Shown in pieces: positions 3,955 to 37,860 of a stretch of DNA of 48,043 nt. Under the pieces are notes generated by a model. It was not told where the DNA came from and ran no database searches. It was given only the letters and a program-made list of their open reading frames with translations. Location of the stretch: contig JAUWOS010000001.1 in the NCBI GenBank assembly GCA_030611985.1, positions 1 to 48,043 of the forward strand, given 5' to 3'. Positions within the stretch are counted from its first letter, which is position 1, and each line of letters starts with the position of its first letter. Both the position numbers and the translations under genes were made by a program. Source of the DNA: Desulfobacterales bacterium (lineage in GTDB: Bacteria > Desulfobacterota > Desulfobacteria > Desulfobacterales > ETH-SRB1).

Positions 3955-3977
3955 AATAAAAATTTCCCAAACGATTT
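3955..3977 (+). repeat. MITE-C terminal fragment
   Basis: AATAAAAATTTCCCAAACGATTT matches the MITE-C inverted repeat (25679-25699). It abuts the MITE-B solo terminus. Confidence 0.55.
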
Positions 3978-4169: not shown

Positions 4170-5417
4170 TTATGCGTTCATAGATTCTAAAAAGCTTTTA
4201 TTATCTTTTGTTTTACCTATTTTTTCAAGCAAAAATTCTATACTGTCAGCAGGATTTAATGAAAAAAGAAGTTTTCTTAATATCCATACACGATTAAGGG
4301 TTTCAGCATCCAGAAGCAGATCTTCTTTCCTGGTGCCTGATTTCTTAATATCAAATGCAGGAAACAATCGTCTATCTGCAAGCCTGCGATCTAACTGAAT
4401 CTCCATGTTGCCCGTACCCTTAAATTCTTCAAAGATAACTTCGTCCATACGACTTCCCGTATCAACAAGAGCAGTTGCAATAATAGTCAGACTTCCTCCC
4501 TCTTCAATATTTCTGGCAGCTCCAAAAAAACGTTTTGGACGCTGAAGCGCATTTGAATCAACTCCTCCGGAAAGAATTTTTCCACTGGGAGGCATAACGG
4601 AATTATAGGCACGCGCAAGCCTGGTTACACTATCCAGAAGAACAACGACATCTTTTTTATGTTCCACTAGCCTTTTTGCCTTTTCAATAACCATTTCAGC
4701 TACTTGAATATGTCTTTCAGAAGGTTCATCAAATGTAGAACTTATAACTTCCGCCTTGACCGAACGCTCCATATCCGTAACTTCTTCCGGTCGCTCATCA
4801 ATAAGCAGAACAAAAGGAATAATATCTTTATGATTCCTGATAATGCTGTTGGCAATATTTTGCAGCAGCATCGTCTTTCCTGACCTGGGAGGCGAAACTA
4901 TTAATCCTCTCTGACCAAAACCGATTGGAATCATAAGATCCATTATTCGTGTAGAATAATTATCAGGATCCGTTTCAAGATTCACTTTCCTGTTGGGATA
5001 AAGCGCCGTCAGGTTATCAAAGAGTATCTTGTCTCTGGCCAGTTCCGGATCTTCATAGTTGACAGCCTCAACCTTTAACAGAGCAAAATATCGTTCAGAT
5101 TCCTTTGGCTTGCGAATCTGTCCTGATACCGTATCTCCGGTTCCCAGATTAAAACGACGTATCTGCGAAGGCGACACATAAATATCGTCTGGGCCAGGCA
5201 GGTAATTATAACTGGGAGATCTTAAAAATCCAAATCCATCAGGTAGTATTTCCAGCGTGCCTTCTCCGAATATCAAACCATTTTTCTCAATCTGTGCCTG
5301 GAGCAAAGCAAAAATAAGTTCCTGTTTTCTCATCCCGGCAGCTCCGTCAATTTTGAAATCTTTTGCCATTTGGGCCAGGTCGCTTATATTCATGTTTTTA
5401 AATTCAACTATGTTCAT
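4170..5417 (-). CDS. rho: transcription termination factor Rho
   Basis: Rho N-terminal and cold-shock-like RNA-binding region, Walker A PPRSGKT, 415 aa. Confidence 0.95.
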
Positions 5418-22979: not shown

Positions 22980-23582
22980 TCAACTTGTCTCAATAATCTC
23001 ATATCCGTTTTTCTGAAGTGAGTTTATAATCGGTTCCACCTGACATGGCTTCAACCTGAAATAATAAATATTTTCATCTGTTCTGTGTGATGCCATCCCT
23101 ACACTTATTATCTGTCCTCTATTATCTTGTATAATACGAGAAACATCTTGAAATGCATCCGGTTTTTTGCCAAGCGCTACATCTATACGAGAACTATTGG
23201 TCAAGAGCCCCATCATGCTGATAAATGCTCCCAGAATATCTGTTGTTGTGATAATGCCAACCAGTTTCCGGTCTTTAACTACAGGGATTCCACCAATTTT
23301 GTGTTTGTAGATAATTCGAGCAGCAGTTTCAATATCAGAGTCAGGGTGAAGCAAAACAGGCTCCTTTATCATAATATCTTTCAGTGTCAGATCCGATACC
23401 ATTGATGGAATAAATGCCTGCTTCAAATCTGTCAGGGTAACAAAACCTATAAAATTATTCTCATCATTTACTACCGGAAGATGTCGTATGGAATGAGAAT
23501 TTACAAGATCAAAAGCATCCTGTACGGAAGCGTTTTCAGAAATAGTAATAGGATTTTTGATCATTATTGATCTGATTCGCAT
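22980..23582 (-). CDS. CBS-pair plus ACT-like domain protein (AcuB-like)
   Basis: Two CBS motifs (IRHLPVV..., IGGIPVV...). Start trimmed to ATG 23582, which has AGGAG upstream. Confidence 0.75.
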   Translation of the reverse strand: MRIRSIMIKNPITISENASVQDAFDLVNSHSIRHLPVVNDENNFIGFVTLTDLKQAFIPSMVSDLTLKDIMIKEPVLLHPDSDIETAARIIYKHKIGGIPVVKDRKLVGIITTTDILGAFISMMGLLTNSSRIDVALGKKPDAFQDVSRIIQDNRGQIISVGMASHRTDENIYYFRLKPCQVEPIINSLQKNGYEIIETS

Positions 23583-23601
23583 GGATAGTATTCTCCTGTT
23601 A

Positions 23602-23623
23602 AGAAACGTGGACGAAATAACTT
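23602..23623 (+). repeat. MITE-B solo terminus
   Basis: AGAAACGTGGACGAAATAACTT. Confidence 0.7.
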
Positions 23624-23783
23624 GAGTGTAACCAAAATAGAACATTTATCTGTTCAATTTGCAGCTTCATCATTTGCAGCTTCTCAATAAATGGAGGCTT
23701 TAAGGTGATGAAATTGATGATCCCGGATTGTTGATTTATGATTGAAGGTTGTTTCTAAATCGACAATCTTTGGAAATCTACCA

Positions 23784-25676
23784 CTACATCCCTGTAAAAT
23801 CAAAACTTAATTTTGTTTGAAACTTTTCTATCCTTTTGAATATCTCTTTTAACATTGTCTGCTCTATGATGGAAAGCTTCTTCGGATTAACATAATTATT
23901 CGGCTTTTTATTTTCATCAATAACCGATGCGATCTGCCGTATAAATCTTAACTGCATCAGGAAGCTGTACGACTGTTCTATTTCATTATACTCCTGCCAG
24001 TGCAAAACTTTTTTCAAATAAAGTTGATGCAGCCTTTCCTGAGTATTAGTTTCTTCAATTTTGTTTTTTAGCGCATATATCCTTGCAAAATCAACAATTG
24101 GCGTCATGGCGCTCTTTATATCAAAAGAGTTCTGGTGTTCACCTTTTGACTCAACTAAAAAACTCCTGAAAAAACCTATCGGAGGTTTAAAGTGGAGGGC
24201 ATTTTCAGTTAAATGGCGAAAAAAACCCGCCCACCCGACAAGAGAATCAAAAAGATATTTGCGAAGCTCGGTTATAAGGTTCATATCTCCATACGCGCCG
24301 CGAAAATCAAAGAAAATACTTGATTTAAGCAAATCTTCAGGTTCCGCAGCATGAATCCATGCTGAAAAATATTTTTTCCAGGTGGATAACGGCCGGCACC
24401 ATTTGGGGTTTTTCGCCATTACATCCCCCTTGCAAAAACTATATCCTGCCTGATCAAGCCAGGAGCAAACCTTTTCTCCAAGTTTTAAAAAATAGCGCCC
24501 TGCCCTCTCTTCCGATTCCTTTGATACGTCTTCAAATATTATTGCATTATCTTGATCCGTCTTAAGTGTTTGCTCTTTTCTCCCCTCGCTTCCTATAATT
24601 ACAAATACAAATCCAGCCGGTGGCTGGCCCAATTCATCAATTGCAAACCCAATCAGTTTATTTAAAATAGCATCTGAAATTGTTGTTAAGAGCCTTGTCA
24701 CATTTTTTGCTTTAGCCCCGCTATTGATAAGTCCCTGGATTAATTCAGGCAACTGTCCGTGTTTGTCTGTGATTTTCTCAATGCTGTCTGCTGTGCTGAT
24801 CTCGCGAATAAGAAATAGCGGTGACTTTCCCTGAGCTGCAACCAGATCACTATTGGTCACAACGCCTACAACTTTTTTATCTGAATCTGTGACGGCAAGA
24901 TGTTTTATATTTCTCTTCATCATTGCTATAAGAGCTTCGAAAACAAGGGCATTGTCTGAAATTGTGCCTGAAAGATAAGACATTATATCGGAAACGGGCT
25001 TTTTAATATCAAGCCCTTTTGCAACAACTTTCTTTCTCAAATCAGTATCAGTAACTACGCCCACAAAATCTCCACCAGGTTTTTTTATAAAAATGGAACT
25101 GCATCTATTACTGCTCATGATTGCTGCTGCCTTCCGGATCGGAAAATCCGTGTCACAGAAAACCAGATCTCCAGTAAAAATACTTGCGACAGACCGGCTG
25201 AAAAATTGCGAAGATTCCTCCTTTGACCGGATACTCTTTGCAACAATTTCAGCATAAGACCTGTTAAGCATCCGCTTGCCGAAAGCATCGGTAAAATATT
25301 CGGAAAAAATCCCATGTTGTGAGCAAGTATGCAGAAAACTCTTTTTAGGCAGAATATAAAAATCCGAATCTTTATTTATTTTCAGCGTCCGAACAGCAAT
25401 TCCATCATTTAAAAGCATGGAAATTCCGCCATAGATATTTCCTTTGTTTAAGAATACATGAAGTGTTTTTTTACCGTTCTGTTCATAATACCGTTCAGCA
25501 GCGCCTTTTTGAATTATATAAAGACATTCAATCCTTGATCGCTCCTGAACAAACAAGATTGTATTTTCAGGATAATGAACCATAGAAACTTCAGAAGCTA
25601 TTTTCTTGAGTTCCTCTTCAGGAAGAAAAGAAAACGGAACCACACCAGACAAGAATTTAAAAGCCTTTTCGTTCAT
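23784..25676 (-). CDS. cyclic-nucleotide-binding plus CBS-pair plus DUF294 nucleotidyltransferase signal-transduction protein (COG2905 type)
   Basis: N-terminal cNMP-binding fold, CBS pair, pol-beta-type NTase motif IIGSEGRKEQTLKTDQDNAI, and a DUF294_C-like tail. 630 aa. Confidence 0.85.
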   Translation of the reverse strand: MNEKAFKFLSGVVPFSFLPEEELKKIASEVSMVHYPENTILFVQERSRIECLYIIQKGAAERYYEQNGKKTLHVFLNKGNIYGGISMLLNDGIAVRTLKINKDSDFYILPKKSFLHTCSQHGIFSEYFTDAFGKRMLNRSYAEIVAKSIRSKEESSQFFSRSVASIFTGDLVFCDTDFPIRKAAAIMSSNRCSSIFIKKPGGDFVGVVTDTDLRKKVVAKGLDIKKPVSDIMSYLSGTISDNALVFEALIAMMKRNIKHLAVTDSDKKVVGVVTNSDLVAAQGKSPLFLIREISTADSIEKITDKHGQLPELIQGLINSGAKAKNVTRLLTTISDAILNKLIGFAIDELGQPPAGFVFVIIGSEGRKEQTLKTDQDNAIIFEDVSKESEERAGRYFLKLGEKVCSWLDQAGYSFCKGDVMAKNPKWCRPLSTWKKYFSAWIHAAEPEDLLKSSIFFDFRGAYGDMNLITELRKYLFDSLVGWAGFFRHLTENALHFKPPIGFFRSFLVESKGEHQNSFDIKSAMTPIVDFARIYALKNKIEETNTQERLHQLYLKKVLHWQEYNEIEQSYSFLMQLRFIRQIASVIDENKKPNNYVNPKKLSIIEQTMLKEIFKRIEKFQTKLSFDFTGM

Positions 25677-25678
25677 TA

Positions 25679-25973
25679 ATAAAAGTTTCCCAAATGATTC
25701 GTTATGCTATAATGTTAATAGCTTAGAATTAAAAGTGAAAACTGACTATTGAAGATTGAAGATTGGTGGTACGCCTTCGGCGTGCTAATTGATAAACCAA
25801 AGTTTTTTAAAGATTATCCTCTTGTATATTAATGTTTTAAAGGGAATATAAATATATAAAAATAGCAGCATTCCTTAAATCTTAAATCTTAAATCTTAAA
25901 TCTTATATACCATACGCCTTCTGTGATTAATTCAAATAATTACAAGATGTTAAATCATTTGGGAAACTTTTAT
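25679..25973. mobile_element. MITE-C, full copy with a 5-bp target duplication (CATTA)
   Basis: Inverted repeats ATAAAAGTTTCCCAAATGATT (25679-25699) and AATCATTTGGGAAACTTTTAT (25953-25973). CATTA is at 25674-25678 and again at 25974-25978. Contains internal 7/8-mer tandem repeats and a CGCC-TTCG-GCG hairpin. Confidence 0.75.
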
Positions 25974-25981
25974 CATTAACT

Positions 25982-26097
25982 TTCCTTTCGCTCAATCCCT
26001 AAATCCCTAAATTCCTAAATCCCTAAATTCCTCAATTCCTCAATTCCTCAATTCCTAAATTCCTCAATTCCTAAATTTGTTTTAATTCCTAAATTCT
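25982..26097 (-). repeat. 8-nt phased GGA-rich array (12 GGA motifs on the minus strand)
   Basis: Minus strand reads ...TTTAGGAATTGAGGAATTTAGGAATTGAGGAATTGAGGAATTGAGGAATTTAGGGATTTAGG... Almost C-free. Starts right after the exonuclease-gene stop. Confidence 0.85.
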
Positions 26098-28269
26098 TCA
26101 ATATTCAGTACGACTATAATAAGTCTTTTGAGAAGCATTTCTTGCTTCTTTTAGAGTATAAATACCTTTTTTTGCCAGAAGCGGAATCAATTTTAGAAAT
26201 ATTTCACCTGTCGCAATAGCATCGCCAAGAGCAGTATGCCTGCCGACAACACTTATACCCAAACGTCCGGCAATTGCTTCCAGGTTGTGATTATTATGGG
26301 CTGGATGCACAACTGCTGAAATAAGCATGGTATCTATCACAGGATTTATAAATTTTACACCTGTTTTTGCTTCTTTTATTTGCAGCATACGCATATCAAA
26401 AGCTGCATTATGGGCAACAAGAACGGTATCCTCAACAAATCGATAAAACATTGGCAATACATTATCAATAGTTGGCTGGCCTTCGAGCATTTCAGACCGA
26501 ATCCCATGAACCCGTATTGATTCATATGGTAAAGAACGCTGCGGATCAATAAACTGATTAAAGAGTTCATCACGCAACAGACGGCAATTTACAATCCGAA
26601 CGGCTCCGATGGAAATGATTTCGTCCCCTCCTCCTGGATTCAATCCTGTTGTTTCAGTATCAAAAACTGTAAACGTCAGTTCGGTTAACGGGCGACTGTC
26701 AAGTTCAGGAATCTGACCGGGCTGGCTGAACAGGTCAAAATCATAAAACTCCGGACGGCTTTCAGGTAAAATCGTTATACTTCTTGTGCTAACATGTTCA
26801 GGAGTTTCAGCAACGGGCAACAATAAGCGAAGATATGATTTATCTTTTGATTTTTTGTGCGAATAAGACCATATTTCCGCTTTATGATAATCAATCACTT
26901 CTTTCAATGTTAATGAAATCCGCTCCTTTTCAACAATTAAAACCTGTTCATTCCACTTTCGTAAGGTTTCGGTTTTTATCGGCATGCCCTTCCAGACAAG
27001 ATCAATATTTACAAATTTTCCCTTTCTCTCCGGTTCACATGTAAATTCAGATTCTCCTGTTTCATTCTTTAATTCATTCAGTACAAAGAGCATAGATAGA
27101 ATTATGGAATAGCTGTCAACCTTAATCCATATCTCCTCATCACAATTTTCAAAATTAATAAGGATGTTCAGCTTCTCTCCGGCCTTTCTTATGATCGATT
27201 CGACAATATCCTTGCCTGGCATCGGAACAAGAGGCCAATATGTTTTAATACGGCTGGAATAATCTGAAACAGTTTTGTCAAGAACATTACCTATACTTAT
27301 GGATTCCTTATTTATAATTTTACCAAATGAGTTCAGTTGTTTCTTGTCCATATCAGGATGCTCAAGCATAACTTCATTAGCGGCCTTGATACCGGCCAGG
27401 GAAGAACGAATACCAACTGCAAGAGATTGCAATATAAAATCCACATTACCATCTTTTTCAAGTTGTTGTGTAATATCGTAAAATATAAGTATAAATCCTG
27501 TAAACCGATTCAGATGGCTTAAAATTGGCGCGGCTTCGACGCGTAAAAACATGTTTCCCTTATCTATAATAACAAAATGCGAAACTATATTCTGCTCCTT
27601 TCGCTTTAATTTTTCAGCTATTTCATCAAGTGCATGCACAATAAGATTTTTGTCAATTACGCCGAATACACTGCGGCCAAGACCTATAAATCGTCCTGAT
27701 TCGGATAGAGGTTCAGAGTCAATGGAATTGTTATTATTACTTGCAAGGAATTGCTTGACACGCTTGTTATATAAAAGAATCCGTCCTTCTGCATTACAAA
27801 CAAGCACACCTTCAGGCAGCTCGGACATAATGGCCGCCAGTATGTTTTTCTCCTCTTCAGATTCCGCTCTTGCAAAATAAATCTTTTTCTCCACATTGTT
27901 CTGCAAATCTTCATAACGATCTGCCGCCTCATTTACAATTTGAGCAAGGCGTATAATATCTTTGCTTCCTTCAATCTTAATACGGTGTGACGGATTTACC
28001 GAATTTATTAAAGTAGCCTCTTCCGCAAGTCTGCCCATCGGAAGAATACAGGTGTGGAAAATTCCATCTAATGCAAATCCCAATCCGGCCAACAGGAGAA
28101 AAACAGCGCTGAAAATATATACGAAATGTTGTTTGATGATATTGATTAAAAGAGACTTTTCTTCCGGCGACAGATGATGCCAGAACAAAACAGCAAGGAT
28201 GGAAATAATAATTAAGGTGATTGAAACAGAAACGGCTGCAAACCACCAGAATTTATTTTTTGGATTCAT
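26098..28269 (-). CDS. membrane sensor-like protein (2 TM, HAMP, PAS, degenerate histidine-kinase-like module) fused to a DnaQ/DEDDh 3'-5' exonuclease domain
   Basis: Exo motifs FDTETTG, HNAAFDMRML, HTALGDAIATGE. N-terminal TM pair, HAMP-like and PAS-like (AIMSELPEGVLVCNAEGRILLYN) segments. H-box-like LAVGIRSSLAGIK has no His. Confidence 0.8.
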   Translation of the reverse strand: MNPKNKFWWFAAVSVSITLIIISILAVLFWHHLSPEEKSLLINIIKQHFVYIFSAVFLLLAGLGFALDGIFHTCILPMGRLAEEATLINSVNPSHRIKIEGSKDIIRLAQIVNEAADRYEDLQNNVEKKIYFARAESEEEKNILAAIMSELPEGVLVCNAEGRILLYNKRVKQFLASNNNNSIDSEPLSESGRFIGLGRSVFGVIDKNLIVHALDEIAEKLKRKEQNIVSHFVIIDKGNMFLRVEAAPILSHLNRFTGFILIFYDITQQLEKDGNVDFILQSLAVGIRSSLAGIKAANEVMLEHPDMDKKQLNSFGKIINKESISIGNVLDKTVSDYSSRIKTYWPLVPMPGKDIVESIIRKAGEKLNILINFENCDEEIWIKVDSYSIILSMLFVLNELKNETGESEFTCEPERKGKFVNIDLVWKGMPIKTETLRKWNEQVLIVEKERISLTLKEVIDYHKAEIWSYSHKKSKDKSYLRLLLPVAETPEHVSTRSITILPESRPEFYDFDLFSQPGQIPELDSRPLTELTFTVFDTETTGLNPGGGDEIISIGAVRIVNCRLLRDELFNQFIDPQRSLPYESIRVHGIRSEMLEGQPTIDNVLPMFYRFVEDTVLVAHNAAFDMRMLQIKEAKTGVKFINPVIDTMLISAVVHPAHNNHNLEAIAGRLGISVVGRHTALGDAIATGEIFLKLIPLLAKKGIYTLKEARNASQKTYYSRTEY

Positions 28270-28298: not shown

Positions 28299-28370
28299 GG
28301 AAGTTATTTCGTCCACGTTCCTAACCGCACAGCTCGCAAAGCCGTGGAAGTTATTTCGTCCACGTTCCCT
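28299..28370 (-). repeat. two tandem MITE-B termini separated by 23 bp
   Basis: GGAAGTTATTTCGTCCACGTTCCT (28299-28322) and GGAAGTTATTTCGTCCACGTTCCCT (28346-28370). Both are translated as the tail of the PASTA ORF. Confidence 0.8.
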
Positions 28371-29362
28371 ATCAGTTTATTATCTTCATAAAGAAAAACA
28401 GTTGAATTATTGTTGGGTATTAAAAGCCGGATTTCTTTGCCCGGATTCACAAAATCATCAAAAAGATCTATTGAGAACCCAAAGCTGTTTAACTGTACAC
28501 GAATATGTCTTTTTAAAAACCCCTCTTTAAGTCTATAGCTGAAAAGACTGACTCTTTTTGCGCCACGTAAATATTTCAGGCCTTTTTCGCCAGGCTCTCT
28601 GTTTATTGTAATATTAACCTGTGTTCCCTCAATTGTTCGATGGCCGGATAGCGGCTTTTGAATTATAATGACATTTTTTGGTTTATCTTTATGAAAAGAA
28701 GATTTTATCTCCCCAAGCAACAGATCGCTCCTTTCGATTAAGAGTATTGCATCATCAAGAAAAAGCCCTTCAAGATCAGGCATCTTATATGCTTTTGGCT
28801 GAACCCCAATGCTCACAAGAAGATCCACACTCTCTTCCCGCTTTATCATAGCGCCTGATGAAGGAGTCTGGGTAATAATTACCTCTTTTTTGATATCCTT
28901 GCTGTATGTGCTGGATAGTATACCCTGGCGCAAATCGTTTTCTTCCAGGATTATACGTGCCTGTCGGACCGAAAGTCCTTTTAGATTGGGCGTCAAAATA
29001 GTTCTGGCGCCTTTTGAAATGATTATCCTGACATCACGTCCCTTTTTTATTTCTGCGCCAGGTCCCGGTTCCTGAAAAATTATGTGGTCTGCTGGAATGT
29101 CGGAGCTGTATTCAGATCTCTTAATCTTTGTATTAAGCCCAAGATCCGACAGGATTTCAAGAACATATACTATGTCTTTTCCTGCAAGATCAGGAACGAC
29201 AATGGTATCTTCACTCTTTATTATAAAAGTGAGCGTGAGATAGGTACTAATCCCGACAATTGCAATAAATGCAATAAATAAAATAGCTATTTTTACAACA
29301 CGTGCAATCACTTCAGCAACACCGTTTAAAACATACTGAAAAGAAACCGTCCATATTGTCAA
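28304..29362 (-). CDS. PASTA-domain membrane protein (three PASTA repeats)
   Basis: N-terminal TM and three repeats of the type VPDLxGxxxxxAxxxLxxxGL...G. The last 22 or so codons and the stop are encoded by MITE-B termini. Confidence 0.75.
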   Translation of the reverse strand: MTIWTVSFQYVLNGVAEVIARVVKIAILFIAFIAIVGISTYLTLTFIIKSEDTIVVPDLAGKDIVYVLEILSDLGLNTKIKRSEYSSDIPADHIIFQEPGPGAEIKKGRDVRIIISKGARTILTPNLKGLSVRQARIILEENDLRQGILSSTYSKDIKKEVIITQTPSSGAMIKREESVDLLVSIGVQPKAYKMPDLEGLFLDDAILLIERSDLLLGEIKSSFHKDKPKNVIIIQKPLSGHRTIEGTQVNITINREPGEKGLKYLRGAKRVSLFSYRLKEGFLKRHIRVQLNSFGFSIDLFDDFVNPGKEIRLLIPNNNSTVFLYEDNKLIGNVDEITSTALRAVRLGTWTK

Positions 29363-30671
29363 GATGGGGAAATGTCATTAAATATCCGTTTTTGGTAACA
29401 AGACAGCGAGCATTAAAAGGCAGTCCTGCAAGCTTGTTATCTATAACAAATTCAGGATGCTTATTCAAAAAACATTTTACTACTTCTTCATTTTCCTCCG
29501 GTTCTGTGCTGCACACAGAATAAACCAGGGTTCCCGACGGTTTGACAAGATGCGCCAGTCTGTCAAGAAATGCTATCTGCCTCTTTTTGTAAAATATCAG
29601 GTTTTTTTTTAACAGCAGCCATTTTGTATCCGGATTTCTTCGCAGAACACCCAGCCCTGAGCATGGTGCATCTAAAAGAATGTGATCGAACATAATGAAA
29701 CATTTTTTGCTTAAGGGCTTGTTCAAATCGTGAGAGCAGGTTTCAACAATTGAAATTCCAAGTCGATTCATTTCGGATTCCAAGAGTAAAAGCTTCTCTT
29801 TGTTTTTGTCAACAGCGAAAATTTTGCCGCTATTTTTCATCATCTGAGCAATATGCCCTGTTTTTCCGCCAAGACCAGCGCATGCATCTAAAACAATATC
29901 ACCTGGCCGAGGATTCAAAAGAAGGGTGACAATCTGCGATGCCTCATCCTGAACCTGAAACCATCCATCTTTAAAGGCTTTTATTTCCGGAATAGATCTC
30001 TCTGGTCTGAAAAAAGAAACTCCATCAGGCGCATAATTCGTTTGCTTGATCTTTTCAACATCATCTTCAATGGATTTAATCAGTTTTTCGCGGGTAGTTT
30101 TGAGTCTATTTGTGCGTATGGTAATAGGAGGAATTTTATTTATTGCATTGCAAACCGCTTCGGTTTCTTCAAAGCCAAAGCGGTTCAGCCATCTTTTTAT
30201 CAGCCATTTTGGAAATGACTTTTTTGCTGCCAATGCACCTGCGGGGTCTTTATCAGCGTCCGGAAAGGGAACTTTTTTATATCCCCTCACAGCATTGCGC
30301 AAGAGCGCATTTACAAACTTAGCAATCCAGGGCGCAGATAGTGACTTGGCCATTTCAACAGATGTATTAACTGCGGCAAAGACAGGTATCTTATTTAAAT
30401 ATATTATTTGAAAAAGTCCTAATCGCAGGATGTTTAAAATTCTGGGATCAATCTTGTTTAAACGAGTTTTAGAAAAATAGGCTATTATCCAGTCGAGAGC
30501 GCCACGCCATCTCAGAACACCATAGGTCAGAGCATAAAGCAAAGACCTGTCTCTTCGTGAAAAATGAGGATTTCCCGCAAAAACATCTTCTAATATTCTA
30601 TCCAAAGTTTTGTGTTGTTTATCCAGACTATTTAAGATAAACAACGCTGTTTTACGTGCATCACTTGCCAA
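29313..30671 (-). CDS. rsmB: 16S rRNA (cytosine967-C5)-methyltransferase
   Basis: NusB-like N-terminal domain, SAM motif DACAGLGGKT, catalytic Cys regions DAPCSG and YSVCS. TTG start with GAGG upstream. Confidence 0.9.
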   Translation of the reverse strand: MASDARKTALFILNSLDKQHKTLDRILEDVFAGNPHFSRRDRSLLYALTYGVLRWRGALDWIIAYFSKTRLNKIDPRILNILRLGLFQIIYLNKIPVFAAVNTSVEMAKSLSAPWIAKFVNALLRNAVRGYKKVPFPDADKDPAGALAAKKSFPKWLIKRWLNRFGFEETEAVCNAINKIPPITIRTNRLKTTREKLIKSIEDDVEKIKQTNYAPDGVSFFRPERSIPEIKAFKDGWFQVQDEASQIVTLLLNPRPGDIVLDACAGLGGKTGHIAQMMKNSGKIFAVDKNKEKLLLLESEMNRLGISIVETCSHDLNKPLSKKCFIMFDHILLDAPCSGLGVLRRNPDTKWLLLKKNLIFYKKRQIAFLDRLAHLVKPSGTLVYSVCSTEPEENEEVVKCFLNKHPEFVIDNKLAGLPFNARCLVTKNGYLMTFPHLDNMDGFFSVCFKRCC

Positions 30672-35465: not shown

Positions 35466-35527
35466 TTCCCCGTTCCCTAAATTCCTAAATTTGCTTTAAT
35501 CCTTTAATTCCTAAATTCCTAAATTCT
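35466..35527 (-). repeat. short GGA-rich 8-nt phased array homologous to 26060-26097
   Basis: Minus strand reads AGAATTTAGGAATTTAGGAATTAAAGGATTAAAGCAAATTTAGGAATTTAGGGAACGGGG. Lies between the pilC stop and the yicC start. Confidence 0.8.
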
Positions 35528-35540
35528 TTTCTTTTCTTTA

Positions 35541-37796: not shown

Positions 37797-37860
37797 CCCG
37801 CACCGAAGGTGCGCTAATTTAAATAATTATAAAATGTTAAGTCGTTTGGGAAACTTTTAT
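37797..37860. repeat. MITE-C half copy (hairpin plus right terminus)
   Basis: GCACCGAAGGTGCGCTAATTTAAATAATTATAAAATGTTAAGTCGTTTGGGAAACTTTTAT aligns with 25912-25973. Confidence 0.65.

Follow-up and report, generated by a model that had tools for sequence, protein, structure and literature searches.

The locus under study lies in a 48,043-nucleotide stretch of Desulfobacterales DNA (the window) and comprises two intact minus-strand genes, of which the exonuclease gene is the 5′ (upstream) one and the DUF294 gene follows downstream across a gap of 421 bp (25677-26097; Table 1). Pfam and motif inspection found the full set of predicted domains and catalytic motifs in both open reading frames. What the first-pass annotation had observed here, namely two same-strand frames at these coordinates with these domains and motifs, is thereby confirmed, its assignments of a DUF294 nucleotidyltransferase (E 3e-48) and a DEDDh exonuclease (RNase_T, E 2e-34) having held in the HMM search.

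Table 1. Features of the DUF294/exonuclease locus and its downstream neighbour (window coordinates).
Feature	Position	Strand	Basis
HK-like/DEDDh exonuclease fusion gene, 723 aa	26098..28269	-	ORF; Pfam RNase_T; homologues
aa 1-150: two predicted TM helices and short loop, then helix-loop-long-helix (HAMP-like/signalling helix)	27820..28269	-	AF2 and structural match
aa 151-266: cytoplasmic PAS domain	27472..27819	-	sub-threshold Pfam PAS_9/PAS_4; PAS fold in model
aa 267-340: DHp-like helical hairpin without phospho-acceptor His	27250..27471	-	Foldseek matches to histidine kinases
aa 341-490: CA (HATPase)-like alpha/beta domain, ATP-binding motifs degenerate	26800..27249	-	model pLDDT ~85-92
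aa 526-723: DEDDh (DnaQ/PolC-type) 3'-5' exonuclease domain, catalytic residues complete	26101..26694	-	Pfam RNase_T; PDB 2p1j
Tandem array, 8-bp unit AGGAATTK (minus strand), ~13 copies	25994..26102	.	TRF; pattern search
Original Shine-Dalgarno (AGGA) of DUF294 gene	25983..25986	-	sequence; now ~300 bp from ORF
Target-site duplication TAATG, distal copy	25974..25978	-	sequence
MITE-like insertion, 295 bp	25679..25973	.	perfect 21-nt terminal inverted repeats, 100% complementary
Target-site duplication TAATG, proximal copy, with DUF294 start codon (25676..25674)	25674..25678	-	sequence
CAP_ED-CBS-CBS-DUF294-DUF294_C gene (COG2905 architecture), 630 aa	23784..25676	-	ORF; Pfam
aa 33-121: CAP_ED (cNMP_binding-type) sensor domain, single copy	25314..25580	-	Pfam E 2e-10
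aa 162-281: CBS pair (Bateman module)	24834..25193	-	Pfam CBS, two stretches; PDB CBS matches
aa 308-627: DUF294 nucleotidyltransferase domain and DUF294_C helical domain	23796..24755	-	Pfam, AF2, Foldseek
AcuB-like CBS-pair and ACT protein gene, downstream, same strand	22980..23645	-	structural match to 9s4v/9qs7

The 630-aa protein belongs to a family of 2038 clusters (50% identity, E<=1e-30), and its Pfam matches run from cNMP_binding through two CBS domains (E 4e-18) to DUF294 (308-447) and DUF294_C (485-627, E 3e-43). The nucleotidyltransferase motifs (G362-S...D374-Q-D376 and D457) are conserved, the catalytic motif invariantly so. The domain on which gating by cyclic nucleotides had been proposed is present, but such gating is putative: the canonical Glu of the phosphate-binding cassette, a cNMP contact, is replaced by Gly84, just 3 of 42 family members having it. 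CAP_ED occurs twice in most Desulfobacterales relatives (duplicated in the 776-aa relatives), compared to the single copy found here.

In the 723-aa protein, RNase_T is matched at aa 535-691 with catalytic motifs D537-x-E539, D625 and H678-x4-D683; the domain aligns to the PolC exonuclease domain (PDB 2p1j) at E 2e-30 and is closest in sequence to the DNA-proofreading domains of PolC and DnaQ. Ahead of it, AF2 places N-terminal helices at 3-32, 35-47, 49-90 and 103-149. The PAS domain gives sub-threshold Pfam matches (aa 150-269), many relatives passing the threshold, and the top Foldseek match to the protein, among many other kinases, is WalK (9a5d), full-length at E 7e-22. The H-box position is V285, and none of 45 relatives has His in this column (R in 33, T in 6, K in 5, V in 1); R288, E299 and P305 of the hairpin are invariant. 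The CA-like domain keeps D423xxW426xG428, while its N-box Asn is unconserved, its G2 box (LPLTLKEV) has lost the ATP-lid glycines, and Pfam HATPase_c has no match in the protein. The extension is a full TM-HAMP-like-PAS-DHp-CA histidine-kinase fold of the WalK kind from which phospho-acceptor His and G2 glycines are both lost; the first-pass annotation was right about a sensor extension but not in taking it for a generic membrane module. Nor is the expansion special to the window, since 975 homologues match at E<=1e-5, the best 120 of which measure 683-750 aa at 55-100% identity. The extension is also present in a Paracoccus protein, and fusion of the exonuclease to a catalytically degenerate histidine-kinase scaffold marks the Desulfobacterales/Paracoccus form of the cassette.

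The spacer had been described as 420 bp of repeats made up of a GGA array and a MITE. The MITE is there, the gap measures 421 bp, and the array is built of an 8-bp unit, starting at the stop codon of the exonuclease gene (11 pattern matches compared to 0.05 expected). In the 86%-identical relative L093, whose corresponding intergenic region holds a similar array at the matching position, the MITE site is empty and the Shine-Dalgarno/start arrangement uninterrupted (cgaaaggaaagtCAATGaacgaaaa). The MITE contains a 7-bp CTTAAAT repeat (4.6 copies), is identical in the independent assembly L092 and has related ends elsewhere in the window (37842-37860, 3956-3974); the ATG of the distal TAATG now opens an 8-codon mini-ORF (25976..25950). 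The fixed MITE at the start codon has split the DUF294 frame from its ribosome-binding site. Its position at the start codon had escaped the first-pass annotation. The gap before MITE entry was ~121 bp and is 0-25 bp in many relatives, which bears out the suggestion of a once-compact arrangement.

Linkage of COG2905 genes to a DnaQ-like exonuclease, stated for proteobacteria in the first-pass annotation, was assessed in a census of 80 species-representative loci, 59 with cNMP-type DUF294 and 43 of these assessable by having 3 kb or more of flank on each side. A DEDDh gene adjoins the cNMP-type DUF294 gene at 44 of the 59 loci and at 34 of the 43, on the same strand in every case and within 650 bp in 31. 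Loci annotated as plasmid or chromid, from four phyla or classes, have the same-strand exonuclease in 7/7. The linkage is confirmed, far exceeds chance and reaches past the proteobacteria. The two genes constitute a genuine conserved functional pair, here a local copy of a widespread cassette that combines a sensor-coupled DUF294 nucleotidyltransferase with a DEDDh 3'-5' phosphodiesterase. Earlier papers already mention the pair, any function of which is putative; Bacillales, mostly without glnK, carry amtB-DUF294-dnaQ operons (PMC3412718). An adjacent exonuclease is missing for about one-fifth of the cNMP-type genes and for all ~12 sCache/PAS-type genes sampled. A consistent substitute phosphoesterase was not found at exonuclease-less DUF294 loci; in some DUF294 proteins with no exonuclease neighbour, a PHP phosphoesterase domain is present at the N terminus.

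In other genomes the cassette sits in loci for acetate-type carboxylate uptake and activation. An SSF symporter is present at 37 of the 80 loci, and the 97 nearest neighbours of the pair, an unbiased set, include 19 SSF, 10 AMP-binding/Acs (7 with ACAS_N) and 7 Response_reg genes, all other families contributing <=3 each. The carboxylate loci hold acetyl-CoA synthetases and SSF/ActP symporters whose small subunits are of the DUF485 or DUF4212 type; at 85-86% identity, the closest relatives show the gene order SSF-REC-exo-DUF294-TetR-Acs(-Acs). The single-domain response regulator accompanies the HK-like exonuclease form and not the short one, a REC gene lying directly upstream in 10/15 of the former as opposed to 0/39 of the latter. 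PA3232-PA3235 of P. aeruginosa are co-induced with ActP (PMC9765439), and transposon-fitness data tie the pair to a DUF4212/SSS symporter phenotype (bioRxiv 10.1101/072470). Phenocopy of the transporter by a pair gene fits a requirement for expression equally with one for activity. This dominant context of symporters, synthetases and response regulator was missed by the first-pass annotation.

The symporter, response regulator and Acs genes, though present in the closest relatives, are all absent near the window copy, a relocated, partly eroded cassette with a single CAP_ED domain. With its usual partners absent, this copy may serve a different function or one in decay. A possible functional neighbour, and at most a possible member of the module, is the AcuB-like gene, whose product matches AcuB structures 9s4v/9qs7 over its full length (E ~2e-27); AcuB is an adenine-nucleotide/Ap4A sensor controlling acetyl-CoA synthetase deacetylation (PMC13121692, PMC13039410).

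The collective evidence is best, if tentatively, read as a reversible protein-nucleotidylylation switch governing carboxylate uptake or activation. In a single AF2 model of the nucleotidyltransferase module, built on a shallow alignment (32 sequences; pLDDT 79.9, pTM 0.79), Foldseek found just four PDB matches at E<=1e-3, all of them to DrrA (TM 0.67) or to the C-terminal adenylylation domain (both chains) and N-terminal domain of GlnE (TM 0.62-0.70). A nucleotidyltransferase of this type would transfer NMP from NTP to a hydroxyl of a protein target, for which the symporter, the symporter's small subunit, Acs and a partner protein are candidates, and would be controlled by its own sensor domains, CAP_ED and CBS (adenylate/energy-state). 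The DEDDh domain would serve as the antagonistic remover, hydrolytically releasing a terminal 5'-NMP from an -OH leaving group. Its activity might be set via the dimeric PAS-DHp-CA scaffold, in which phosphorylation would be lost and docking of the (phospho-)response regulator retained, with the effect that carboxylate uptake or activation could be tuned post-translationally to cell energy and carbon state. PHP-domain DUF294 proteins lacking an exonuclease neighbour count in favour of the eraser logic; the proofreading-type likeness of the exonuclease and the DUF294 genes without an adjacent one count against the switch. We know of no precedent for the removal of NMP from a protein by a DEDDh domain; the folds of known de-AMPylases and UMP-removers are PP2C-like, Fic, HD or NTase. 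The make-and-degrade proposal of the first-pass annotation is partly supported overall: an oligonucleotide product is not favoured, given that only DrrA and GlnE matched significantly, whereas its wording of a nucleotidylated signal is compatible.

Alternatively, the nucleotidyltransferase might extend a specific RNA, such as a symporter/acs mRNA or a small RNA, at its 3' end with non-templated nucleotides that the exonuclease would trim, the two enzymes thereby controlling expression of the adjacent transporter through transcript stability or translation. Poly(A) polymerases, CCA-adding enzymes and TUTases do belong to the Pol-beta nucleotidyltransferases, DEDDh enzymes genuinely degrade nucleic acids from the 3' end, and the pair shares operons with its presumed targets; but RNA tailing is rendered unlikely by the GlnE/DrrA fit of the module with its helical part, compared to TUTase/Tailor matches at probability <=0.13 and TM <0.2, by the absence of a Pfam-detectable RNA-binding domain from both proteins, and by exonuclease relatives that are proofreading domains rather than RNase T or Orn. 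Somewhat less probable still is a free (oligo)nucleotide messenger, linear or cyclic, made upon sensor occupancy, destroyed by the exonuclease and acting on the transporter or other effectors. A sensor-gated synthase working with a phosphodiesterase that is likewise under sensor control is a scheme that fits both architectures, and oligoribonuclease, a DEDDh enzyme, degrades dinucleotides. HalB of Hailong, a nucleotidyltransferase making oligodeoxyadenylate, is a weak structural match (probability 0.72, TM 0.25), and the CBS domains of the AcuB-like neighbour's family bind Ap4A (PMC13039410). Against a messenger, Foldseek showed no significant likeness of the module to polymerases or to cGAS/DncV-type or GGDEF-type synthases, the best structural matches to it are protein-modifying enzymes, no domain that recurs among the 97 nearest neighbours is a receptor or effector for such a messenger, and PADLOC gave no defence-system signature.

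Adenylylation of a metabolite or xenobiotic, as by aminoglycoside nucleotidyltransferases, with the exonuclease-like enzyme recycling the adduct, we consider improbable. DUF294_C and KNTase_C are united in one Pfam clan (PMC3710099), and ANT(4'), kanamycin NTase and AadA appear as secondary Foldseek matches (E ~1e-2); however, their TM of ~0.32 falls well below that of GlnE and DrrA, and a multi-sensor architecture together with linkage to transporter and Acs genes is usual for regulators rather than for detoxifying enzymes. That the adjacency is incidental, the exonuclease belonging to housekeeping DNA repair/proofreading or an anti-phage defence island apart from DUF294 function, can nearly be dismissed. 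PolC/DnaQ/DinG-type models do score best for the exonuclease domain, which also matches a CRISPR-associated DEDDh model in PADLOC. Yet the census contradicts this reading: 46 same-strand exonuclease matches, from many phyla, fall in the 471 kb of flank within 3.5 kb of DUF294 and 0 in the 658 kb beyond. DUF294 has no PADLOC match, defence genes do not recur nearby, and replication/repair genes are absent among the 97 nearest neighbours.

The protein AMPylators GlnE and DrrA are structurally closest to the DUF294 nucleotidyltransferase module, a likeness taken from one AF2 model. WalK shares its fold with the exonuclease extension, which differs from the kinase in having neither the phospho-acceptor His nor the G2 glycines.

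Both genes that the first-pass annotation had placed at 23784-28269 on the minus strand are intact open reading frames, and its assignment of one to the DUF294 nucleotidyltransferases (NTases) and of the other to the DEDDh exonucleases is borne out by the Pfam matches collected in the table and by the catalytic motifs. The NTase motif is intact in the window protein (G362-S...D374-Q-D376, plus D457), with G362, S363, D374, D376 and D457 conserved across 47 diverse DUF294 members. The partner protein keeps all five DEDDh catalytic residues (Exo I D537-x-E539, Exo II D625, Exo III H678-x4-D683), motifs that point to a putative hydrolysis of nucleic-acid 3' termini. The nearest relatives of both proteins are found in Desulfobacterales. 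The DUF294/COG2905 family comprises 2038 clusters (50% identity) at E<=1e-30 and extends to model pathogens such as Vibrio and P. aeruginosa (PA3233). Databases already know the gene pair and three papers mention it in passing, so it is not a new kind; searches of the literature by locus tags or keywords found no functional study of it.

Features of the gene pair, its intergenic region and its downstream neighbour (nucleotide positions in the window, or residue positions where marked aa)
Feature	Position	Strand	Details
Exonuclease gene, 723 aa	26098..28269	-	Intact ORF; upstream member of the pair
PAS	aa 150-269 of 723-aa protein		Sub-threshold Pfam matches
RNase_T	aa 535-691 of 723-aa protein		Pfam E 2e-34
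AGGAATTK 8-bp tandem array, ~13 copies	25994-26102		Starts at exonuclease stop codon
MITE, 295 bp	25679-25973		Perfect 21-nt terminal inverted repeats
MITE target-site duplication TAATG, 5 bp	25974-25978 and 25674-25678		Proximal copy holds DUF294 start codon
DUF294 gene, 630 aa	23784..25676	-	Intact ORF; downstream member of the pair
cNMP_binding (PF00027)	aa 33-121 of 630-aa protein		Pfam E 2e-10, 40.7 bits, cutoff 27.5
CBS pair (PF00571), two stretches	630-aa protein		Pfam E 4e-18
DUF294 (PF03445)	aa 308-447 of 630-aa protein		Pfam E 3e-48
DUF294_C (PF10335), helical	aa 485-627 of 630-aa protein		Pfam E 3e-43
AcuB-like gene (CBS pair + ACT)	22980-23645	-	138 bp downstream of DUF294

The recurrent linkage of the two families, noted in the first-pass annotation, is confirmed by a census of 80 loci from one-genome-per-species contigs, in which all ORFs were searched with an iteratively built DEDDh HMM. 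An exonuclease gene was present in the locus for 44 of 59 CAP_ED-bearing DUF294 genes and, where at least 3 kb of flank was available on both sides, in 34 of 43 loci (79%), 31 of those at a distance of no more than 650 bp; all matches lay on the same strand as DUF294. The outer flanks provide a built-in control, with 46 matches at up to 3.5 kb from DUF294 (471 kb in total) compared to none in the 658 kb beyond, and the linkage is therefore clearly better than chance. Seven annotated plasmid or chromid loci (Hymenobacter, Vibrio, Ruegeria, Paracoccus, Cytobacillus, P. aeruginosa, Methylocella) all have a co-oriented 3'-5' exonuclease gene adjoining DUF294 or at most two genes away. Direct fusions of DUF294 to a DEDDh domain were absent among 316 DUF294 proteins.

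The pairing is specific to the CAP_ED-type architecture, since about 12 sampled sCache_2/PAS-CBS-DUF294 genes have no exonuclease neighbour. Long DUF294 variants carry a PHP phosphoesterase domain, above the Pfam threshold, ahead of sCache_2-PAS-CBS-DUF294, and others have sCache_2-PAS-CBS-DUF294 alone (examples of these types are P0280, P0291, P0305 and P0310); both types have no DEDDh neighbour and often adjoin sodium:solute symporter (SSF) genes (loci L052, L055, L057). Replacement of the exonuclease neighbour by a PHP domain in some DUF294 proteins fits an NTase that needs some phosphoesterase partner. Beside exonuclease-less DUF294 genes, a consistent substitute phosphoesterase was not found as a general pattern; one such cyanobacterial locus has a GAF-HD protein nearby. 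Two Desulfobacterota loci (L015, 8135-8683; L032, 8357-8875) encode a stand-alone cNMP_binding protein upstream of a two-CAP_ED DUF294 gene, with no exonuclease within 10 kb. In a PADLOC scan the DUF294 protein had no match and the exonuclease matched only generic DEDDh and PDC-S48 domain models, so that no defence system was recognized. Altogether, we regard the pair with high confidence as a functional module, a genuine sensor-controlled system for adding and removing a nucleotide.

What the nucleotide is added to is a matter on which structure prediction can be brought to bear. A further deep search, started from a diverse profile, brought up close Desulfobacterales proteins that were already in the set and no new diversity, and the model of residues 290-630 (pLDDT 79.9, pTM 0.79) thus derives from a shallow alignment. 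Searched with Foldseek against the PDB, it gave just four matches at E<=1e-3, all to DrrA or GlnE: DrrA/SidM in complex with Rab8a (6yx5_B; E 6e-9, query-normalised TM 0.67 over 342 columns), the C-terminal adenylylation domain of GlnE (3k7d_A and 3k7d_B; E 5e-7 and 1e-6, TM 0.64 and 0.62) and the GlnE N-terminal domain (1v4a; E 7e-6, TM 0.70). Aminoglycoside nucleotidyltransferases rank next, at a TM of ~0.32. The DUF294 protein has the GlnE/GlnD/DrrA-type fold of an NTase with a helical C-domain, and the G-x-G-R-x-E...D-x-D active site that goes with it; the structure match agrees with an earlier grouping of DUF294_C by sequence with the C-terminal domains of GlnD and GlnE (PMC3710099).

These results separate two parts of the make-and-degrade logic that had been proposed for an oligonucleotide or nucleotidylated signal. 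The sensor-controlled add/remove module stands. The oligonucleotide as its product fares less well, because the structure matches are to protein AMPylators, while RNA-tailing TUTase/Tailor enzymes match the NTase model at background level and the Hailong oligonucleotide synthase HalB gives a weak match (probability 0.72, TM 0.25). The modelled fold thus speaks for an enzyme that attaches one NMP to a protein hydroxyl rather than for a polymerase. DEDDh enzymes free a terminal 5'-NMP from an -OH leaving group, and NMP removal from a Tyr, Ser or Thr hydroxyl would be the same type of reaction, which makes the writer/eraser reading chemically coherent. To our knowledge, there is no precedent for the DEDDh/DnaQ fold in the role of an NMP eraser. 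Between the two readings, protein nucleotidylylation controlling carboxylate uptake or activation is the one we tentatively put before an oligonucleotide signal, at a likelihood somewhat short of even.

The sensory inputs likewise require some revision. The DUF294 protein had been described as gated by cyclic nucleotides, and the CAP_ED and CBS domains on which that description was based are present, the CBS pair being typical. The window protein has G84 where a cNMP-contact Glu is canonical, a Glu retained by only 3 of 42 family members, and the contact Arg (R96 in the window) is kept in 15 of 42, both counts being dependent on the alignment; with these residues so poorly conserved, the domain is better read as a CAP_ED-fold sensor. 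Most Desulfobacterales relatives are 776 aa long with two tandem CAP_ED domains, the first of which was lost in the window clade (630-648 aa); no relic of it was detected in the intergenic DNA.

The N-terminal extension of the exonuclease had been taken for a membrane sensor module expanded in this window. It is a sensor extension, of a more particular kind than a generic membrane module, and the expansion is shared: fusion homologues number 975 proteins at E<=1e-5, and the best 120 of these are 683-750 aa long with 55-100% identity. The AlphaFold2 model of residues 1-525 (mean pLDDT 77.5) runs from two TM helices joined by a short loop through a helix-loop-long-helix element, a PAS domain and a helical hairpin to an alpha/beta domain. 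As a whole it retrieves sensor histidine kinases (HKs) from the PDB by Foldseek, including WalK (E 7e-22), 4i5s, YF1 chimeras, ThkA and HK853, consistent with a predicted PAS-DHp-CA fold in the extension. Kinase kinship is visible only through this fold and one NCBIfam match to PnpS; Pfam HisKA and HATPase_c were not detected in the window exonuclease, and phmmer searches of the DHp-CA region against the PDB gave chance matches only and no kinase.

The residues of kinase chemistry are largely gone from this fold. The H-box phospho-acceptor column is Val in the window and is occupied by R33/T6/K5/V1 over 45 aligned relatives, never by His, with R288 next to it invariant; HK-like sequences derived from the sampled loci likewise lack His at this column. 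The N-box Asn is poorly kept (24/45 and 14/45 sequences at two candidate positions), the G2 region (LPLTLKEV) is free of Gly, and G1 survives only as a conserved D-x-x-W-x-G remnant. Given the loss of H-box His, N-box and G2 chemistry, the extension is understood as a pseudo-histidine-kinase scaffold. N320 (nt 27310-27312), which lies in helix 2 of the DHp and not at the canonical phospho-acceptor site, aligns with His in 40 of 45 relatives; this His was considered as a marker of response regulator (RR) gene presence and did not track it cleanly. Of 15 assessable genes for HK-like exonucleases, 10 are directly preceded by a single-domain RR gene, compared to none of the 39 genes for short exonucleases. 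We infer that the DHp-CA scaffold still docks an RR and passes RR and PAS inputs to the exonuclease domain. Between the window protein and the exonuclease of the canonical locus, the DHp-CA region is the most diverged (54% identity), followed by PAS (65%) and the TM-HAMP, linker and exonuclease parts (73-80%).

The genomic company of the pair gives the module its probable context. SSF symporters occur in 37 of the 80 sampled loci, some of them exonuclease-less. In an unbiased count of the pair's immediate neighbours, one per side (97 proteins, Pfam-scanned), SSF accounted for 19, AMP-binding (acyl/acetyl-CoA synthetase) for 10, seven of these with the Acs-specific ACAS_N, and Response_reg for 7, with every other family at 3 or fewer. 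The window's closest relatives (DUF294 at 85-86% identity) have the order SSF, single-domain RR, exonuclease (729 aa), DUF294, TetR and acetyl-CoA synthetase (Acs), one of them with a second Acs. Paracoccus denitrificans PD1222 presents acs, DUF4212, SSF, DUF294, a hypothetical gene, a response regulator and a 659-aa exonuclease, the last aligning with the window protein over the CA-like region and the start of HAMP/PAS. Between the DUF294 and RR/exonuclease genes of Ruegeria (L005, 7802-8320) and Paracoccus (L006, 7802-8299) lies a conserved protein of 165-172 aa with no Pfam match, possibly another part of the cassette in alphaproteobacteria.

Published observations run in the same direction. 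In P. aeruginosa, PA3232-PA3235 (including ActP) are induced ~16-fold on propionate (PMC9765439), and earlier work cited there places PA3234 (ActP) under MxtR/ErdR regulation. Transposon fitness data revealed a member of the pair as cofit with the DUF4212/SSS symporter, for which the authors speculated on a role in symporter expression (bioRxiv 10.1101/072470). Operons that combine amtB with dnaQ and a DUF294 gene are reported from Anoxybacillus, Geobacillus, Paenibacillus and Brevibacillus (PMC3412718, Table 1, footnote d). For most of the genomes having such operons glnK is unlisted (PMC3412718, Table 1), which suggests that DUF294 and its exonuclease can stand in for PII-type control, there of another family of transporters. 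Our sampled loci, mostly from Desulfobacterota and Bacteroidota, showed no recurrent AmtB neighbour, and PII and glutamine synthetase genes were absent from the sampled pair neighbourhoods. The recurring theme is that of a regulatory accessory of solute uptake, chiefly of the acetate type.

The window copy stands apart from this company. Neither an SSF nor a REC ORF was detected across the 48-kb window, and no Acs gene adjoins the pair, which is flanked upstream by rsmB and a PASTA-domain gene and downstream by an AcuB-like gene and an O-antigen-ligase-like gene. The PASTA protein (352 aa, 28304-29362, minus strand) has three PASTA domains and no kinase or transpeptidase domain, matching only the C-terminal part of a PknB-type kinase model; its gene has 50 nt in common with the 3' end of the rsmB-like methyltransferase gene (29313-30671, minus strand) and stops 34 nt short of the exonuclease start. 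The AcuB-like protein can be aligned from end to end with AcuB structures (E ~2e-27). In Bacilli, AcuB senses adenine nucleotides (AMP) and Ap4A, and exerts control over acetyl-CoA synthetase by inhibiting the deacetylase AcuC (PMC13121692, PMC13039410). The adjacency of AcuB and DUF294 was seen only in the window's lineage, where the AcuB-like neighbour takes up the acetate theme again.

The separation of the two genes by a repeat array and a MITE, as first described, is confirmed, at a gap of 421 bp. L093, an 86%-identical relative with the canonical locus, has a similar AGGAATTK array at the corresponding place between the two genes (4818-4960), there with repeats in either orientation, and the array is thus ancestral to both; a protein-binding site and a REP-like element are possibilities for it. 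A mini-array of the same repeat lies elsewhere in the window, at 35506-35528. L093 carries the uninterrupted site cgaaAGGAaagtCAATGaacgaaaa, from which it follows that the MITE entered between the Shine-Dalgarno sequence and the DUF294 ORF, duplicating the start codon; the gap before insertion was ~121 bp. The native Shine-Dalgarno now precedes an 8-codon mini-ORF and the DUF294 ORF is preceded by MITE-end sequence alone, and this parting of the gene from its ribosome-binding site may have altered expression. The insertion is identical in L092, an independent metagenome assembly, and hence is fixed in this population. The element combines all the marks of a MITE: it is short, ends in inverted repeats, has duplicated its target site, is missing from that site in a relative and has further terminal copies. 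Its terminal sequence TCRTTTGGGAAAYTTTTAT recurs at 3956-3974 and at 37815-37860, the latter a 46-bp stretch 89% identical to the MITE end. The intergenic region contains no terminator-like structure, and its promoter-like matches are at background. The window copy, together with its array, seems to derive from the canonical locus by displacement.

A fuller mechanistic scenario can be drawn from these elements, which as a whole we consider unlikely. The pair would form a reversible protein-nucleotidylylation switch, with a GlnE/DrrA-like writer under the control of energy and metabolite sensors and a DnaQ-fold 'exonuclease' repurposed as the eraser that removes NMP. Writer and eraser would directly gate carboxylate (acetate) transporters, and in Bacillales ammonium ones, in analogy to GlnD/GlnK/AmtB. 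In the Desulfobacterales/Paracoccus form, the eraser would be tied to two-component signalling through a pseudo-HK that senses the (phospho-)RR instead of phosphorylating it. The evidence as a whole narrows the question to a protein-AMPylase-like writer with an obligate phosphodiesterase partner in acetate-type uptake and activation, one subtype being RR-coupled via a pseudo-kinase. If true, the scenario would add a new layer of post-translational control to the bacterial acetate switch, a new substrate type and a new biochemical role for the DnaQ fold, and a clear case of a pseudo-histidine kinase serving as regulatory scaffold for an enzyme. For the window genome the message is modest, that of a copy away from its usual partners.

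Among known systems, the closest are PA3232/PA3233 of the P. aeruginosa actP operon and the Shewanella/Pseudomonas stutzeri loci Sama_1525 and Psest_0349, which have the same co-oriented, adjacent pair of cNMP-CBS-DUF294 and DnaQ-like genes. These are encoded with a cation/acetate or DUF4212-type SSF symporter, are co-regulated with growth on acetate or propionate and are cofit with the symporter, whereas the window locus is without one; the PA3232-type exonuclease is a stand-alone protein of ~210-250 aa encoded after DUF294, and that of the window is a 723-aa HK-like fusion encoded before it. The fusion shares the order and fold of WalK (YycG)-type PAS HKs (TM-TM, HAMP-like, PAS, DHp, CA); a single-domain RR gene adjoins the fusion gene in most relatives, and none was detected in the window. 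The fusion differs from these kinases in the lack of the phospho-acceptor His (45/45) and the G2 glycines and in having a C-terminal DEDDh domain as its output. That domain has the same catalytic residues as the DnaQ/PolC proofreading domains (2p1j, E 2e-30; DnaQ, E 1e-16), yet comes without a polymerase, on an N-terminal signalling scaffold, and is tied to DUF294 and carboxylate-utilisation genes. For the writer, DrrA/SidM of Legionella is the best structural neighbour and is likewise paired with a separately encoded, dedicated eraser (SidD). It differs in being a secreted effector, in carrying GEF and lipid-binding domains and in targeting Rab1/Rab8 of the host; its eraser is PP2C-like, and sequence identity is only 15%. 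With GlnE/GlnD the DUF294 protein shares a Pol-beta NTase followed by a helical substrate-binding domain and the G-S/G...D-x-D motif (TM 0.62-0.70); unlike them, it has no PII or glutamine synthetase gene in its company and senses through CAP_ED and CBS domains rather than ACT, and the putative remover is a DEDDh enzyme instead of an HD or second NTase domain. By analogy, the GlnD-GlnK-AmtB system would offer a parallel in logic, with metabolite-sensor control, a writer/eraser principle and a transporter (AmtB) as the end target; in several Bacillales, it is the place of glnK beside amtB that DUF294 and dnaQ take (PMC3412718).
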